Notes under the pieces: model-generated
What the model was told of the DNA's origin: nothing
The model's input: only the letters and a program-made list of their open reading frames with translations
Databases searched by the model: none
Made by a program: the position numbers and the translations under genes
Part shown: positions 847 to 21,808 of the stretch, piece after piece
Layout: the number at the start of each line of letters is the position of its first letter
Position numbering within the stretch: position 1 is the first letter of the stretch
Source: an uncultured Bacteroidales bacterium
Lineage (GTDB): Bacteria; Bacteroidota; Bacteroidia; Bacteroidales; Paludibacteraceae
Length of the DNA stretch: 64,000 nt
Direction of reading: 5' to 3'
NCBI GenBank assembly: GCA_934728255.1
Contig: CAKVEC010000005.1
Span: 8,419-72,418 of the forward strand

Positions 847-1117
847 ATAAAAGGCGTTTATTGACGCTCTGTTCTGACCTTATGAAACTTCGCAACTTTC
901 ACTATTGTTGTTCAGAACTCTGCAACGATGAATGCTCATAGGAATATATGCATATTCTTATGCCGTGTGCTATAGCCAATACTATTGGGTATGGCATGTT
1001 GGGTATATGGTGTATTGCAGTATTCGGTGTGGGCTTCGCGTTGTCGGTTCAAACAACAAAGGCAATGCGAAGGCCTCATAAGGTGGAACCGGCAATCGTC
1101 GAGTCCACGCTTTTTTT
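847..1117 (+). ncRNA. Candidate structured ncRNA, unknown family, copy A; ends in an intrinsic terminator
   Basis: Homologous to 20961..21282. Shared 5' block 'ataaaaggcgtttattg(a)cgctctgttctgac', hairpin 'ggaatat..atattc', and 3' block 'gtgggcttcgcgttgtcggttc...ggcaatgcga.agcctca...gtggaac...tccacg' followed by a T-run at 1111-1117. Indels between the copies break any common reading frame. Confidence 0.4.
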
Positions 1118-1175
1118 ATGTTCTCACTCTCTAAAAACGAGTGTAACAAACGAGACAACAACATAAAAAACAAAT

Positions 1176-3047
1176 ATGAGCAATATCATCAAATCTCTTC
1201 GCCGTTGGCTTCAGCAAGGCAACCGTCTCACATGGGCAGTTTTCTGCCTGTTTACACTATTGTTATTTGCCAAACAACTTATCTTTCACTGGGATGCTTT
1301 CCATTCCCTGCTCATCAGTTCGCTATGGAGAAACCCTATCGCCTTCTACAAGTTCTATATGTCTAAGTTGCTGATGCCGCTGTTTATTGCCAGTTTTGTC
1401 TTTATCTCGCGGCATCGTTGGTGGACGGTTCTTGTATCTTTCCTCACGGACATCTGGTGTATGGCAAATCTCATCTACTATAAGACGTATGACTCGTTCC
1501 TGTCCGTAAATGACATGCTGTTAGTGGGCAACTTGAATGGTGCGTGGGATTCTGTAACCGCTTACTTTGACATCAGTATGGTGTTGCTTCTCCTTCTCAG
1601 TATAGTATGGACTATCATATATATTCTTATGCCAAAGGTTCAACCAAAGAGACTATGGGGTGCATTTAGCCTTACGCTCTTGTTGCTTTATGGTCTTGCT
1701 GTCTTGAACAATTACTTCACCTATAACGCTCGATTCTGGGCAAGTACCAACCCGCAAGAAGCAGTACAAATTGCAGAAGAGACAGAAGAATGGGCAACTT
1801 TTGTCAAGACACACGGAGGACAAGTAAGGCGGACTGAAGAATGGATGGGATACCTCCCTTTCTACAATCTCTACGATGCCGCCTGTGATAATACCTCGGT
1901 AGGTATCGGACCAATGGTACATTACGTCCAAGAGCAATCCATACTCTCTGACTTTGTGGCAGTTAACGTGTACCAAATCTTCAAGCAGGACATGACAGGA
2001 GACATTAGAACGCTGACTGAAGAAGAGCGGAATCTTGTCGCTCCGTTTGTTTATTCGGACTCAACGCAACTCCGCCCGACAAATAACCTCATCATTATCT
2101 TGGTGGAGAGTTTGGAGGATTGGCCCCTGCATCACGAGATTGAAAGGCAACAGGTCGCCCCGTATCTGATGCAACTGAAAGAGCATAATCACGTCCTATA
2201 TTGCAAAAAGATAAAGAGCCAAGCCCTTGGCGGCAATTCGGGAGACGGACAGATGATTATAAACACTGGTTTATTGCCCATCCATGATGGCGTTGCCTGT
2301 ATGCACTATGGAAATAACTTATATCCTAATTTTGCGCATTTCTATTCCACCTCCGCCTTGGTGAATCCATGGCCGCAGATATGGAATCAAGATACCATGA
2401 GTGTTCGGTACGCCTACACACAAAAGATAGAACCGCAAAACACGCAATGGGAGGACAAACAGGTATTGGAACATGCTTTGAACAGCCTGCAAGGGAACAA
2501 ACCACCGATGTGCCTGCTTGCTATCACGGTTTCTATGCATTGTCCTTTCAATCGGGTGAGAAACAACAAGATTCACATGACTGCTCCCGCTATTTTGGAT
2601 AGATACATGCAATGTCTCAACTACACAGATTCGTGTATTGGTGCCTTTATGGACGCTGTATTGCAAGACTCTGTATTGTCGCAATCCACTATTGTAATCA
2701 CGGGTGACCATACCATATTCAAGCCTGCTATGCTGACCGAGTTTCACGATTATGCAGTGGAGCAGAACCTGCCCATTGCCTCTGGCGATAACTATTGCCC
2801 GCTTATCATCTATTCTCCCGAAATCAATGGCAATATCCACATTACGGACGAGTGTTATCAGATGGATATTTTCCCGACCATTCTGCATCTCATCGGGTGT
2901 GAGAACTACTATTGGCACGGATTGGGTGTAAACCTCTTGGACGCAGAAGCCCGTCACCACCGCACCCTTTCCGAACAGGAAGCCTATCGCCTCTCCGATA
3001 TGTTAATCCGTAGTGACTATTTCCGTCAATATATGGTAAGTAAATAG
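1176..3047 (+). CDS. LTA synthase / sulfatase-like (alkaline phosphatase superfamily) membrane protein
   Basis: 623-aa ORF with a hydrophobic multi-pass N-terminus followed by 'LIIILVESLEDW', 'GGNSGDGQMIINTGLLP' and 'IVITGDHT', motifs typical of the sulfatase/LtaS fold. Confidence 0.75.
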   Translation: MSNIIKSLRRWLQQGNRLTWAVFCLFTLLLFAKQLIFHWDAFHSLLISSLWRNPIAFYKFYMSKLLMPLFIASFVFISRHRWWTVLVSFLTDIWCMANLIYYKTYDSFLSVNDMLLVGNLNGAWDSVTAYFDISMVLLLLLSIVWTIIYILMPKVQPKRLWGAFSLTLLLLYGLAVLNNYFTYNARFWASTNPQEAVQIAEETEEWATFVKTHGGQVRRTEEWMGYLPFYNLYDAACDNTSVGIGPMVHYVQEQSILSDFVAVNVYQIFKQDMTGDIRTLTEEERNLVAPFVYSDSTQLRPTNNLIIILVESLEDWPLHHEIERQQVAPYLMQLKEHNHVLYCKKIKSQALGGNSGDGQMIINTGLLPIHDGVACMHYGNNLYPNFAHFYSTSALVNPWPQIWNQDTMSVRYAYTQKIEPQNTQWEDKQVLEHALNSLQGNKPPMCLLAITVSMHCPFNRVRNNKIHMTAPAILDRYMQCLNYTDSCIGAFMDAVLQDSVLSQSTIVITGDHTIFKPAMLTEFHDYAVEQNLPIASGDNYCPLIIYSPEINGNIHITDECYQMDIFPTILHLIGCENYYWHGLGVNLLDAEARHHRTLSEQEAYRLSDMLIRSDYFRQYMVSK

Positions 3048-20122: not shown

Positions 20123-20425
20123 ATGAATAGTACACAATATTACATAGATACGCTTCGGGCACATGCTGCTGAACTACAAACGCGGTTTGGCATATCGTAT
20201 ATGCGTCTTTTCGGTTCTGTGGCACGCGGCGAGCAGCGGGAAGACAGCGATGTGGATATTTTTGTTGAGATGCCTGCTACAATGAAAGAGGTTTGCGGGG
20301 CACAATTGTTTTTAGAGAAATTATTGGGCTGCAATGTAGATTTAATCCGCAAGCACAGCAACCTCAGTACGTACTTTCTAAACCAAGTAGAGAAAAATGG
20401 TATCACTATCTTCGGAGCAGCGTGA
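20123..20425 (+). CDS. Nucleotidyltransferase-domain antitoxin (MntA-like, type VII TA)
   Basis: 100 aa. 'LFGSVARGEQREDSDVDIFV' is the minimal NTase GS...DxD motif. Confidence 0.8.
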   Translation: MNSTQYYIDTLRAHAAELQTRFGISYMRLFGSVARGEQREDSDVDIFVEMPATMKEVCGAQLFLEKLLGCNVDLIRKHSNLSTYFLNQVEKNGITIFGAA

Positions 20426-20780
20426 ATTGGCAAAACGCACATTATCACAAATTCAATCGGCAATCATACAACTAAATGAATGGAATACCGATGTGGTGAG
20501 TCAAGATGACTGGCTACATTCTTCCGAGGGAATGAGACGTTTGGCGGCAAATTGTATGTTGATTGAAGCCATTGGTGAAGGACTCAAGAAAGTAGATAAG
20601 CGAACAGATGGGCAATTGTTGGTGTTGCGTTCTGAAATACCATGGCAGGAAGTAATGGCTATGCGCAATCATATAGCCCATGGCTATTTTGATATAGACG
20701 CTGAATTTGTGTATGGGGTTATTAAGAATGATTTGCTTCCGTTATTGGAGGCTGTGGATTTTTTGATCACGCAGTTATAA
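20397..20780 (+). CDS. HepT-like / DUF86 RNase toxin
   Basis: 127 aa. 'MRNHIAHGY' matches the RX4HXY HEPN motif. It overlaps the NTase gene by 29 nt, the typical TA arrangement. Confidence 0.8.
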   Translation: MVSLSSEQRELAKRTLSQIQSAIIQLNEWNTDVVSQDDWLHSSEGMRRLAANCMLIEAIGEGLKKVDKRTDGQLLVLRSEIPWQEVMAMRNHIAHGYFDIDAEFVYGVIKNDLLPLLEAVDFLITQL

Positions 20781-20960
20781 TCATATCATAATATATAAGT
20801 CTTTTTGTTTGTGGGACTATAAAACAATAAATACATCCTTGGTCTCTGGATGTGAAACATAGAGACCTATTGAAGTTCACGCAGAGGTGTGGGGTGGGTA
20901 TTATGGCTTGCGCAAGCAGTAAGCCCGCCAAACATCAATGTAATGGGCTTCACAGACATA

Positions 20961-21282
20961 ATAAAAGGCGTTTATTGCGCTCTGTTCTGACGAATTGAAA
21001 TGTCGCAGTTTCTTTAGAGTAATCAGACTTAGCAACGATAGATGTCCTCGGAATATAAGTATATTTCGCAACCTGTGTAGGGGCACGGGCATCTTGCCCG
21101 TAGGTGGTATGCAAGTACCATTGATTGTTCCCTTTCTATGCTCTTTTGTAGAGTGTGGTTTGATCATAGGTGTGCGTATAGTCTTATATTGGCGTGGGCT
21201 TCGCGTTGTCGGTTCTATTACTCAAGGCAATGCGACAGCCTCAATTCGTGGAACGACGACGGTCGAACTCCACGTTTTTTTT
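20961..21282 (+). ncRNA. Candidate structured ncRNA, unknown family, copy B; ends in an intrinsic terminator
   Basis: Homologous 5' and 3' blocks to 847..1117. The terminator stem 'gtggaacgacgacggtcgaactccac' plus the T-run at 21275-21282 differs from copy A but keeps its pairing. Confidence 0.4.
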
Positions 21283-21406
21283 GTGCTCAATTGTAGGCTA
21301 AAAGGGGAAAACACACAGAAACACACGGAAAAACACACCGCATAGGTTACAAACATACAATATAATGCCATAAACTATATACGTCCAATCTTAAAAATAT
21401 CCGAAT

Positions 21407-21808
21407 ATGAAAAAACTACTTACCTTGTTCGCTGCCTGTATCTTTGGTGCAGTAATGGTTTATGCAGATGTTCTGAAATTACAAGCAACATCTCTGGCTT
21501 TCAAATCTCAAAATGACTATGGCTATTGGTCTGACTGGTCGGATTGGGAAAGTACAAACATTTTAGTTGTAGTAAATACGGATATTGACAGAGTGAATAT
21601 CTATTCCAGTTCTCCGCAAGAATATGATATTTATGATTATGATGCTGAAGAGAAAGATGGTGAGGGCGGAACTATATCTACCTGTCATTGTATCGACCAA
21701 AATGGTACTCGATGTGATATGCGGATTCGCTTTCAAGCAAATGGGCAGGTTCAATTATATGTTGATTATGCTGATTTTATGTTTGTTTATAATGTTCAAA
21801 GAAAATAA
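21407..21808 (+). CDS. Small secreted hypothetical protein (first gene of FHA/kinase operon)
   Basis: Signal peptide 'MKKLLTLFAACIFGAVMVYA'. A 5-nt gap separates it from the next ORF. Confidence 0.5.
   Translation: MKKLLTLFAACIFGAVMVYADVLKLQATSLAFKSQNDYGYWSDWSDWESTNILVVVNTDIDRVNIYSSSPQEYDIYDYDAEEKDGEGGTISTCHCIDQNGTRCDMRIRFQANGQVQLYVDYADFMFVYNVQRK

Follow-up and report, generated by a model that had tools for sequence, protein, structure and literature searches.

A family of rod-shaped RNA elements 5' of cell-surface genes in uncultured gut Bacteroidales

Copies A (850..1117) and B (20964..21282) of an intergenic element in the window, the whole 64-kb stretch of DNA analysed, are members of an undescribed family of RNA elements of uncultured gut Bacteroidales. 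The element measures ~290 nt, consists of one giant hairpin with a terminal terminator, and lies a short distance 5' of cell-surface genes. Nearly all of the 170+ retrieved relatives come from Paludibacteraceae/Bacteroidales gut MAGs, and each carrier genome has several copies. Where the element sits and which way it faces suggest a 5' leader acting in cis, not an independent sRNA gene.

Copies, limits and fold

The original prediction described A and B as homologous, terminator-ended elements sharing three features. Pairwise alignment recovers these features at the predicted positions (Table 1): a 5' block, AAAGGCGTTTATTG(A)CGCTCTGTTCTGAC; a GGAATATA..TATATT hairpin; and a 3' block, GTGGGCTTCGCGTTGTCGGTTC..GGCAATGCGA..GCCTC..GTGGAAC..TCCACG, ending in T7 in A and T8 in B. 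A 22-mer from the 3' block has two exact occurrences in the window, and 0 of 100 shuffles contain any. An nhmmer profile derived from copies beyond the window matched A and B with E = 7e-51 and 7e-46, and neither this profile nor a pattern search detected a third copy in the 64-kb window. Elsewhere, the 5' block is kept in 106 of 109 genome copies, always 144-341 nt 5' of the 3' block. The predicted 3' ends stand, but the 5' starts at 847 and 20961 do not, as homology extends further upstream (in copy B from ~20872). The homologous unit runs from the -33 region to ~15 nt beyond the T run, where inter-copy homology stops (~15-17 nt), and no inverted repeat was found at these outer ends. Complementary sequences occur at both ends of the rod.

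The original prediction could place the element in no RNA family, and the Rfam 15 search agrees. No covariance model matched anywhere in the window at gathering score. Copies A and B gave chance-level matches only (E 0.8-10), far below gathering, and 18 outside loci yielded only tRNA and DUF805b matches, both beyond the element. Literature searches on leaders or rods in Bacteroidales or Paludibacteraceae gave nothing specific, though the element may be an unnamed entry in large catalogues (PMC8040213). The element is thus new to Rfam and, so far as found, to the literature, and genomes of a little-studied, uncultured family carry it in several copies each.

The whole element is a single imperfect hairpin, or rod, of ~105 bp. 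On its 5' side are three short hypervariable segments, which in almost all copies have exactly compensating counterparts on the 3' side. Across 76 copies, 91.3% of cells in the proposed structure are paired, compared with 36-47% when the partners are slid. Compensatory double changes number 419 cells versus 149 in shuffles, and none of 500 shuffles reaches the observed value. Pairing is 96-100% in the three variable helices, ordered v1, v3, v2, and each column there has 3-5 pair types; a mutual information (MI) analysis likewise shows covariation. Among metagenome copies, the helix corresponding to positions 913..937 of copy A has a compensated variant, AAGAAC:GUUUU. Large structured bacterial RNAs with comparable covariation support are rare.

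Duplex energies tell the same story at the level of individual copies. The 5' and 3' strands of one copy bind each other with -24.0 kcal/mol and non-cognate strands with -11.9 kcal/mol (p = 6e-43). In an independently ascertained metagenome set, the values are -23.6 for own halves and -11.8 kcal/mol for non-cognate halves (p = 3e-31). The two halves of nearly every copy therefore fit as a private lock and key. This makes the family a natural collection of orthogonal, self-addressed RNA helices within one conserved scaffold, which is relevant for RNA design. Identical variable codes occur 5' of different genes in different genomes, and codes are constant at orthologous loci of different species; the code of copy B is also found in its orthologues L011, L031, and L056 and in L138 and L173. 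A few copies (L093, L110, L125, and L186) have mismatched halves. Assembly chimerism may account for these, given that ~190 nt in the centre hardly differ from copy to copy.

Whole elements adopt a single rod as their minimum free energy (MFE) fold, at -107 to -120 kcal/mol and with z-scores between -6.4 and -7.9. Each element contains ~15 G.U pairs, and the sense fold beats the antisense fold by 27 kcal/mol in 103 of 103 copies; therefore, the structure belongs to the + strand RNA. The rod is broken every 7-9 bp by internal loops that are strongly conserved among copies. In the folds, its A tract is base-paired to the U tail. In read-through RNA, the rod runs ~8 bp further than the U tract, and its base, AGACAUAU(U)AAAAAGGCG : CGCUUUUUU(G)UAUGUCU, forms a nearly continuous duplex of ~20 bp. 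A comparison of cognate and non-cognate flanks past the U tract gave no signal, these flanks being too conserved for such a test.

This fold changes how the predicted parts relate to one another. The sequences of the three shared features hold, but the features are not separate, since all are parts of one giant hairpin. The middle is variable and ~50 nt longer in copy B, as predicted; it is, however, no unstructured filler but the apical part of the hairpin, and apical length varies by 50-100 nt across subfamilies. The predicted pairing of ggcttcgc with gcgaagcc within the 3' block is perfectly complementary. It is also invariant and competes with the long-range pairing backed by covariation. 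A placement of v2:v2' as a loop-to-strand pseudoknot on this 3' hairpin was considered and dropped. MI and folding make the three variable helices collinear, and hence part of one rod that competes with the 3' local hairpin.

The same data favour RNA over protein, as had been argued from reading frames. The open reading frames through the two copies (948..1166 and 20995..21345) differ and are unconserved, and no conserved frame emerges with further copies. Just one ATG recurs (..ATGTCGCA..), and two of the three v3 alleles, CTTCGCA and TCTCGCA, lack it. Changes between copies compensate each other within RNA pairs and are not codon-like.

Table 1. Features of copies A and B and the genes that follow them (window positions).
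Copy	Feature	Position	Strand	Evidence and details
A	5' block, strand 1 of the proposed switch	850..878	+	Alignment, folding, covariation; in the rod, AAAGGCGU pairs with 3'-end GCGCUUUU and GUUCU..AC with terminator 5' arm GU.GGAAC
A	Long-range helix, 5' strand	879..912	+	Duplex with own 3' strand -23.3 kcal/mol; covariation; v1 CTTATG 879-884, v3 CTTCGCA 888-894, v2 TATTGTTGTT 903-912; conserved GAAA/UUUC between variable segments can make a small local hairpin
A	Conserved CAGAACTCTGCAACGATGAATGCTC	913..937	+	Rod partner GGGCTTCGCGTTGTCGGTTC; helices 6 and 7
A	Apical domain	938..1028	+	Holds the originally predicted hairpin GGAATATATGCATATTC at 941-957; below typical family length
A	GTGGGCTTCGCGTTGTCGGTTC	1029..1050	+	In the rod, 3' partner of 913-937; alternatively, left arm of local hairpin with 1061-1076
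A	Long-range helix, 3' strand	1051..1082	+	In order: v2' AAACAACAAA, GGCAA, v3' TGCGAAG, GCCT, v1' CATAAG; the local hairpin leaves precisely the variable positions unpaired
A	Intrinsic terminator (predicted)	1083..1117	+	Hairpin GTGGAACCGGCAATCGTCGAGTCCACGC, then T7 (1111-1117); local fold -13.5 kcal/mol
A	LtaS-like gene	1176..3047		Start 59 nt past element
B	5' domain	20872..20963	+	Homology begins at GAAGTTCACGCAGAGG and finishes ..CACAGACATAATA
B	5' block	20964..20991	+	Alignment, folding
B	Long-range helix, 5' strand	20992..21047	+	v1 GAATTG, v3 TGTCGCA, v2 GAGTAAT, then conserved CAGACTTAGCAACGATAGATGTCC; duplex with own 3' strand -26.6 kcal/mol
B	Apical domain	21048..21193	+	Hairpin GGAATATAAGTATATTT at 21050-21066; ~50 nt longer than in copy A
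B	GTGGGCTTCGCGTTGTCGGTTC and 3' strand	21194..21247	+	v2' ATTACTC, GGCAA, v3' TGCGACA, GCCT, v1' CAATTC
B	Intrinsic terminator (predicted)	21248..21282	+	Hairpin GTGGAACGACGACGGTCGAACTCCACG, then T8 (21275-21282); local fold -14.2 kcal/mol
B	Small lipoprotein gene	21407..21808		Start 124 nt past element

Position relative to genes and promoters

In 89 of 93 copies the next gene is co-directional; the distance from the T run to its ATG is usually 35-100 nt. A Bacteroidetes promoter box, TAnnTTTG, is found in ~95% of copies at a fixed 69 nt or ~110 nt 5' of the 5' block. Between the T run and the gene, such a box occurs in just 3 of 76 copies. The arrangement is that of a leader: promoter, element, and a co-directional gene without a promoter of its own. 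The canonical upstream box is absent in both window copies and in the orthologues of copy B, and none lies 5' of the 5' domain in the copy B lineage. For the window copies, transcription could come from the upstream gene instead.

The original prediction asked whether copies accompany particular neighbouring genes. Downstream genes are mostly lipoproteins, BspA-type LRR proteins, GtrA, glycosyltransferase, and similar envelope or surface proteins, and thus specify the cell surface seen by host and phages. They are heterogeneous, with no common pathway among them. Upstream genes are unrelated: they fall into 74 clusters, mostly housekeeping, and include no conserved partner such as a regulator or transposase.

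Two further roles for the element were considered and set aside. The variable segments do not appear to guide the RNA to the downstream mRNA, as pairing with the UTR/start region is equally strong for cognate and non-cognate partners (-8.3 vs -8.7 and -9.7 vs -10.3 kcal/mol). Copy A was also examined as a gene-replacement breakpoint by comparison with L198, and the breakpoints were found inside the ORF. Copy A is kept in both syntenic relatives examined (L194 and L198), though the following gene is mosaic, and no empty site was recovered. At more distant orthologues of the LtaS-like gene (L195, L196, and L201), a different long-hairpin leader, unrelated-looking in sequence, follows the same logic, which may point to a wider superfamily.

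Alternative pairings and what they may do

Judged by sequence, the element ends in an intrinsic (Rho-independent) terminator, a G+C-rich hairpin directly before a U tract. The stem has 9-11 bp and -12 to -16 kcal/mol, and T4-T9 follow in nearly all copies. A simple terminator scan overlooked it solely on account of its loop, which is longer than 8 nt. The base of the rod (GGCG:CGC, then the U tract) might be a terminator in its own right.

The 5' arm of this terminator has a second partner. The 5' block is complementary to it, GUUCU..AC pairing with GU.GGAAC in the MFE fold. The first 7 nt of the arm are conserved over three terminator types, and their partner in the rod is the 5' block. In the L016/L064 subfamily, the helix between the two shows a compensatory change from UGAC:GUGG to UGGU:ACAG. 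Most of its pairs are invariant, and its support consists of complementarity and this one covariation event. Variants of the 5' block are unevenly distributed over terminator types: GA occurs in 16 copies with type T2 and 4 with T1, and AG and G occur in 54 copies with T1 and 10 with T2. This association may be phylogenetic. When the RNA up to the U tract of 101 copies was folded with either terminator or antiterminator forced, the energies differed by -0.2 +/- 1.9 kcal/mol, a balance partly expected in any four-strand exchange.

Residues within the rod point to the same competition. Those that lie in internal loops and are nevertheless invariant (GGCAA, GCCU, and GAAA/UUUC) coincide exactly with the pairing residues of the alternative local hairpins. 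GGGCUUCGCGUUGUC has two alternatives, GGCAAUGCGA..GCC in the local hairpin and ..GCAACGAUAGAUGCCC in the rod. The local hairpin GGGCUUCGC../..GCGA..GCC is invariant and therefore uninformative for covariation.

The reading we prefer, at slightly below even odds (probability about 0.45), is that the element makes up the bulk of a long 5' leader RNA that would work in cis as a bistable transcription attenuator. In this model, the 3' half would zip onto the 5' half while being transcribed, bringing the conserved 5' block (..GCGCUCUGUUCUGAC) beside the emerging terminator. The 5' block, including GUUCUGAC, could then pair with the terminator 5' arm (GUGGAAC..), no terminator hairpin would form, and RNA polymerase would enter the gene. 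If the local hairpins won, transcription would stop at the U tract. The competing hairpins would be the 5' block folded on itself, GAAA..UUUC, GGGCUUCGCGUUGUC/GGCAAUGCGA..GCC, and the terminator. Candidates for the factor that tips the balance are a protein, a helicase or RNase, a small molecule bound to the conserved apical domain, and temperature. The same scaffold stands before many envelope and surface genes and therefore would define a regulon. If the switch is real, it would be a new post-initiation regulon in a phylum with sparsely mapped RNA-based regulation.

A broader version of the attenuator model treats the elements as a new class of large "lock-and-key" rod leaders, multi-copy scaffolds of 300-400 nt with private three-part codes, in which one global signal would set read-through of the surface regulon. 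Here, the private codes would zip promoter-proximal onto terminator-proximal RNA, and nascent leaders would be insulated from one another. We consider this generalisation less likely than not.

The extension of the rod past the U tract is compatible with a processing or insulating stem as much as with a switch. The primary transcript would lose the double-stranded rod through cleavage at the A/U-rich base of the rod, with RNase III as one candidate enzyme. This cleavage would determine where the downstream mRNA begins and how stable it is and would uncouple it from promoter-proximal RNA, and the terminator would only trim unprocessed transcripts. This account strikes us as improbable. The nearly continuous ~20-bp base in read-through RNA suits it, as does the persistence of homology ~15-17 nt after the T run, and private halves would hold each leader folding on itself. 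However, conserved loops every 7-9 bp usually disfavour RNase III, and a processing stem leaves unexplained both the embedded strong terminator and the invariant loop residues complementary to local partners. Were the element a processing or stability stem only, it would be an annotation feature that marks starts of transcription units and accounts for MAG assembly breaks and chimeras.

It is still more doubtful that the rod and 5' domain are an abundant, free-standing, trans-acting sRNA, such as a protein sponge or scaffold, for which gene position and read-through would be secondary. Such an RNA would have its own promoter box and strong terminator, several copies per genome, highly conserved internal loops as possible protein sites, and a 3' end shielded by pairing between A tract and U tail, all of which the element offers. 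Yet it would need neither the 89:4 orientation bias nor the short, fixed distance to a promoter-less ORF nor complementarity past the U tract. In addition, the variable segments are fully buried in the rod and show no added complementarity to the mRNA that follows them.

Least probable is a selfish palindromic repeat of the MITE kind (cf. Correia, ERIC, and RUP), or a DNA-level hairpin site, whose RNA fold is incidental: the element is multi-copy and one long imperfect palindrome with complementary ends, a formal echo of the terminal inverted repeats that the original prediction named as a sign of a MITE, some codes recur before different genes across genomes, and a few copies have mismatched halves, but variation is confined mainly to compensated blocks, asymmetric internal loops are invariant, the G.U pairs and the sense/antisense gap belong to RNA and not duplex DNA, orientation toward the downstream gene is strongly biased, and at orthologous loci the codes persist from species to species. 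Nor do the copies look like the product of random drift away from a master copy, free of strand or orientation preference. Moreover, blastn against plasmid and phage records found no match to the element, and it has no linkage to transposases.

Comparison with known systems

Attenuators, including riboswitch platforms, T-boxes, and trp/pyr-type leaders, share several properties with the element. They are 5' leaders ending in an intrinsic terminator, with an upstream segment complementary to the terminator 5' arm and mutually exclusive pairings. They also have a closing long-range helix that is free in sequence but kept in pairing, and T-boxes likewise occur in many copies per genome before different genes. 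In contrast, the element has no known aptamer, specifier, or leader peptide and no Rfam match. The closing helix has 4-10 bp in attenuators and ~40-100 bp in the element, whose antiterminator strand lies ~250 nt from the terminator. Its downstream genes also lack a metabolic theme. A riboswitch was rejected on the heterogeneity of these genes, the apical domain, whose length differs by 50-100 nt between subfamilies, and the lack of a match to a known aptamer.

Correia/NEMIS elements of Neisseria, ERIC/IRU of enterobacteria, and RUP/BOX of pneumococci are transcribed palindromic repeats found in 5' UTRs. Like them, the element is a multi-copy imperfect palindrome that forms a long hairpin in mRNA leaders, and by analogy it may be capable of acting as a promoter or terminator and of carrying RNase III sites. 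It differs from these repeats in its block-wise compensated variation, fixed orientation, codes stable across species, and strong G.U strand asymmetry, with no transposase link seen.

In Bacteroides, the 5' UTRs of capsule loci act with UpxY (NusG-like) antiterminators. These leaders and the element are both found in Bacteroidales, both are long and precede genes for surface structures, and both need recognition to be locus-specific within a multi-copy system. However, no upxY-like gene follows the element, where the first genes encode lipoproteins, LRR proteins, GtrA, and the like, and the specificity of the element is intramolecular.

Rod-shaped bacterial RNAs such as 6S RNA are also long imperfect hairpins with conserved internal loops. 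The element has no Rfam match to 6S RNA, which is a single housekeeping gene, whereas the element is multi-copy and lies in terminator-bearing leaders. The Bacteroides sRNAs FopS and GibS were considered as well and are unrelated, being 65-70 nt long with a single-stranded seed and a terminator (PMC11697453).

One described RNA shares leaders with the element. The DUF805b motif (RF02914) is a separate 35-nt hairpin 3' of the element. It is absent at both window copies, and in 6 of the 18 scanned loci it lies between the T run of the rod and the start codon.

Copies in and beyond the window

The element is a sense-strand rod RNA with private pairing codes in each copy and a terminator, and it sits in leader position. 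Both look-alike stretches of the original prediction are recovered where it placed them, and pairwise alignment confirms the three features said to be common to them (see table). The 3' block's 22-mer has exactly two occurrences in the 64-kb window and none in 100 shuffles. Likewise, a profile from outside copies matches exactly two window sites, A and B (E = 7e-51 and 7e-46). Outside loci (other genomes or metagenome contigs) carrying element copies or LtaS-like gene homologues are designated by L numbers.

The search for further copies that had been proposed uncovers a large family. A scan with the 19-mer GGCTTCGCGTTGTCGGTTC, covering one genome for each species, gave at least 118 loci; about 109 of the 118 matches listed are true copies, and the remainder are chance matches in high-GC genomes. 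Nearly all copies listed come from Paludibacteraceae or unclassified Bacteroidales MAGs of human, ruminant, and other guts, and three bins assigned to other phyla probably reflect contamination during binning. Individual MAGs carry copies on at least five contigs (e.g., JAZNMH01, JAZNMT01, JAZNRY01, JAFTOD01). The 5' block, which lies outside the probe, is found 144-341 nt upstream of the 3' block (mode about 200) in 106 of the 109 copies listed, whose length is typically 285-290 nt (range 229-426 nt). A second scan, run independently on metagenome contigs with the 5' block as anchor, returned 75 loci with 66 further full copies, including near-identical relatives of A (L148) and B (L138, L145, L173). 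Plasmid and phage records contain nothing resembling the element.

In line with the original difficulty of placing the element in a known RNA family, Rfam 15 gives no match at gathering score in the whole window, and A and B have only chance-level matches at E up to 10. Terminator-ended structured leaders with alternative pairings are a kind already known. Neither Rfam 15 nor the searchable literature yielded a description of this family, of how large it is, of its distribution, or of its single-rod architecture with three private helices.

Features of the element, its neighboring genes, and related loci (window positions unless a locus is named)
Feature	Position	Sequence or pairing	Remark
Copy A	850..1117 (+)		
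Copy B	20964..21282 (+)		
5' block		AAAGGCGTTTATTG(A)CGCTCTGTTCTGAC	common to A and B; pairwise alignment
Hairpin		GGAATATA..TATATT	common to A and B; pairwise alignment
3' block		GTGGGCTTCGCGTTGTCGGTTC .. GGCAATGCGA .. GCCTC .. GTGGAAC .. TCCACG, then T7 (A) / T8 (B)	pairwise alignment
v1	directly 3' of ..TTCTGAC	6-7 nt	pairs with linker between GCCTC and terminator
v3		NNTCGCA	pairs with TGCGANN
v2	directly 5' of CAGGACTTAGCAACGA	7-9 nt	partner is would-be loop of predicted 3'-block hairpin
Rod base helix		5' AAAGGCGU : 3' GCGCUUUU	whole-element folds
Next helix		UUGC : GCAA	whole-element folds
5' block to terminator arm		GUUCU..AC : GU.GGAAC	whole-element folds
Order after 5'-block helix		v1, then v3, then v2	whole-element folds
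Helix above v2		CAGGACUUAGCAACGAUAGAUGCCC : GGGCUUCGCGUUGUCGGUUC	whole-element folds
Helix beneath small apical domain		CGGGAUAUAGA : UUUAUAUUCGG	whole-element folds
Gene behind A	1176..3047		LtaS-like membrane protein
Gene behind B	21407.. (ORF 21407..21808)		small lipoprotein heading FHA/kinase cluster
DUF805b motif	L020:1036-1070; L012:7745-7779; L032:5225-5259; L047:4814-4848; L053:5175-5209; L104:1873-1907		
Second leader family	L195:1700-2003; L196:1712-2003; L201:1171-1503		upstream of LtaS-like orthologues

The rod and its private codes

The alignment is 95-100% conserved apart from three short 5'-side segments (v1, v2, v3), each the reverse complement of a 3'-side segment. The top-ranked column pairs by mutual information are exactly the v1, v3, and v2 pairings, and two-strand duplex folding reproduces this three-part helix in virtually all copies (-20 to -28 kcal/mol; A -23.3, B -26.6). 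Whole-element folding gives a single rod, one giant hairpin, of -107 to -120 kcal/mol (z-scores -6.4 to -7.9), and no shuffle folds as well. Pair counts were taken on a 76-copy alignment (A2), in which the rod has 105 pairs and 91.3% of cells are paired, compared with 36-47% when partners are slid by 1-3 columns. A covariation count, a check of the kind suggested originally, finds changes on both sides in 419 cells versus 149 +/- 9 in shuffles, with 0 of 500 shuffles as high. In the v helices, 96-100% of cells are paired, and each column shows 3-5 pair types. The two halves of one copy pair at -24.0 kcal/mol versus -11.9 for halves of different copies (p = 6e-43), and the same test on the metagenome set gives -23.6 versus -11.8 kcal/mol (p = 3e-31). 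The probe region also varies among metagenome copies: GUCAGUUC (n = 11) converts a U.G pair to U-A, and a subfamily with GUCGUUUU (n = 5) is matched by CAGGAC to AAGAAC on the opposite strand. Support for the existence of this RNA structure is very strong.

The sense fold beats the antisense fold in all 103 copies (-110.8 vs. -84.1 kcal/mol), and the roughly 15 G.U pairs per element would become C.A mismatches on the opposite strand. No conserved ORF exists across aligned copies, the sole recurrent ATG sitting in just one v3 allele of three. The sense-strand advantage and the lack of a conserved ORF bear out the earlier preference for RNA over protein, and the strand asymmetry also favors RNA over a DNA-level structure.

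Pairing codes are shared by orthologous loci across species, both for B (L011, L031, L056, L138, L173) and for A (L148, L194, L198), and thus are not hypermutating. The simplest reading is that the variable positions are the only ones bound by one structure rather than two, so that doubly constrained positions would have been frozen while code positions underwent long compensatory drift. Private codes could possibly insulate co-expressed leaders from each other. The variable segments were also tested as guides to their own mRNA, with no signal.

The 5' and 3' variable segments are mismatched in L093, L110, L125, L186, and partly L174. Either paralogous leaders have recombined naturally in these copies, or assembly has joined different copies into chimeras across the near-identical central ~190 nt. 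They call for caution with MAG assemblies containing this repeat.

Alternative pairings and the terminator

Those internal-loop residues of the rod that never vary (GGCAA, GCCU, and GAAA/UUUC) are exactly those paired in local alternatives; the hypervariable positions are those paired in the rod only. The hairpin originally drawn in the 3' block, GGGCUUCGCGUUGUC/GGCAAUGCGA..GCC, can form 15 bp (-21 kcal/mol, 99.9% paired), but it is invariant, hence uninformative, and it competes with the rod. GAAA..UUUC forms a small local hairpin with v3 as its loop. The terminator is strong, comprising 9-11 bp (-12 to -16 kcal/mol) followed by U4-U9. GUGGAAC, the seven bases with which it begins, is kept across three terminator types that otherwise differ, and in the rod it is paired to the 5' block. 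In the L016/L064 subfamily, this helix is changed from UGAC:GUGG to UGGU:ACAG, and GCCUC plus v1' serves as the 5' arm of the terminator hairpin, another way to make rod and terminator exclusive. The 5'-block variant GA accompanies terminator type T2 in 16 copies versus T1 in 4, and variants AG and G accompany T1 in 54 versus T2 in 10, an association that may be partly phylogenetic.

For RNA extending to the U tract, folds with the terminator forced and folds with its 5' arm paired upstream differ by only -0.2 +/- 1.9 kcal/mol (101 copies), and the terminator is part of the minimum free energy fold in 65 copies, the antiterminator in 35. Reasoning from these features, we infer a regulatory role: the 3' half would zip onto the 5' half co-transcriptionally and deliver the 5' block to the nascent terminator, and read-through would be set by whether terminator or extended rod forms. 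The rod could alternatively be a processing or insulating stem, with which its extension ~8 bp past the U tract in read-through RNA is consistent, as is the end of homology about 15-17 nt beyond that tract.

The 5' domain of a typical copy (e.g., L046:240-296; L001 upstream of 5532, - strand) carries AUGUCUGC, which is fully complementary to the GCAGACAU conserved directly before the 5' block. UAUGUCU or UAUGUGU after the T run nearly copies AUGUCUGC, giving GCAGACAU two alternative partners.

Promoters, neighboring genes, and a second leader family

Among the copies listed, the next downstream ORF is co-directional in 89 of 93 cases and usually starts 35-100 nt past the T run, a gap that contains the Bacteroidetes -7 box TAnnTTTG in only 3 of 76. 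In ~95% of copies, this box, preceded by TTG at -33, lies upstream of the 5' block at a fixed 69 nt (mode) or about 110-115 nt. The transcript is thus predicted to start about 55-100 nt upstream of the start given originally and should include a 5' domain ending in conserved GCAGACATATTA. A and B both depart from this pattern: copy A has TGTAAAAC where the box is expected, and B, like its orthologues, is homologous to other copies only from GAAGTTCACGCAGAGG (20872) onward. A and B may instead be transcribed from the co-directional genes upstream, a YhcG-like nuclease (A) and a HepT toxin (B). A free-standing sRNA would explain the promoter, terminator, and protected U tail, but not the orientation bias or the promoter-less genes. 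A MITE-like repeat would account for a multi-copy palindrome and a few mismatched halves (L093, L110, L125, L186), which may be assembly chimeras, but is contradicted by compensated block-wise variation, G.U asymmetry, orientation bias, stable orthology, and the lack of any transposase link.

Genes upstream of copies across the family are unrelated and housekeeping. Most of those downstream encode signal-peptide lipoproteins with no Pfam match, in clusters of 18, 10, and 4; others encode BspA-type LRR proteins, GtrA, zinc-ribbon/FHA proteins, peptidases, OmpH, and glycosyltransferases. Directly upstream of B and co-directional with it, an MNT-like nucleotidyltransferase and a HepT-like RNase form a toxin-antitoxin module (20123..20780). 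A conserved sequence (20795..20871) replaces the usual promoter region of B and its orthologues L031 and L039; it contains the hairpins AGTC(T/C)TTTTGTTTGTGGGACT and GGTCTCTGGATGTGAAACATAGAGACC, and its match to CRISPR-DR63 is at chance level (E = 2.6). Behind B, an operon-like stretch (21407..about 27800) begins with the small lipoprotein gene and continues with genes for a zinc-ribbon/FHA protein, an FHA-domain Ser/Thr kinase, and an FHA protein, plus other large ORFs; L056 and L075 likewise have zinc-ribbon/FHA genes behind the leader. The DUF805b motif (RF02914, a candidate cis-regulatory hairpin) lies between T run and start codon in 6 of 18 scanned loci, so some leaders stack two RNA elements; it is absent from the window. 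Another recurrent hairpin, GCATAGT(A/T/C)GGGAGTTCCTATGC, follows the T run in L009, L011, L037, L058, and L102 and, in several downstream genes, adjoins or overlaps the start codon as annotated.

Among homologues of the LtaS-like gene behind A, two syntenic relatives retain leader A almost unchanged, with proteins only 78% and 48% identical to that of the window. Against its close relatives L198 and L194, the gene is a mosaic. L198 shares 96% identity with it over the flanks, the leader, and the ORF's initial ~78 nt, shows no nucleotide similarity over the central ~1.5 kb (protein 48% identical), and returns to 91% identity over the final ~245 nt. The replacement breakpoints lie within the ORF, not at the leader, and the pattern looks like allelic replacement of the extracellular part. 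In L197, L199, and L200, the gene lies inside an operon with no leader before it. Three more distant orthologues (L195, L196, L201; 60-64% identity) are preceded by another leader, about 300 nt long and built on the same logic. This second family has a canonical promoter box where visible (L196), a conserved AAAGCAUUACUAUUAUUUCGCG 5' part, ..ACAUAUUAAUAAAGCAUUACUAUUAUUUCGCG.. on the 5' side, and a hairpin over the start codon, with z-scores of -7 to -10. Its long-range helices differ among the three loci yet remain complementary (CGCGUUCAAG:CUUGAACGCG, CGCGUUUACC:GGUAAACGC, CGCGAGAACC:GGUCUCGCG), and the family may be distantly related to that of the window.
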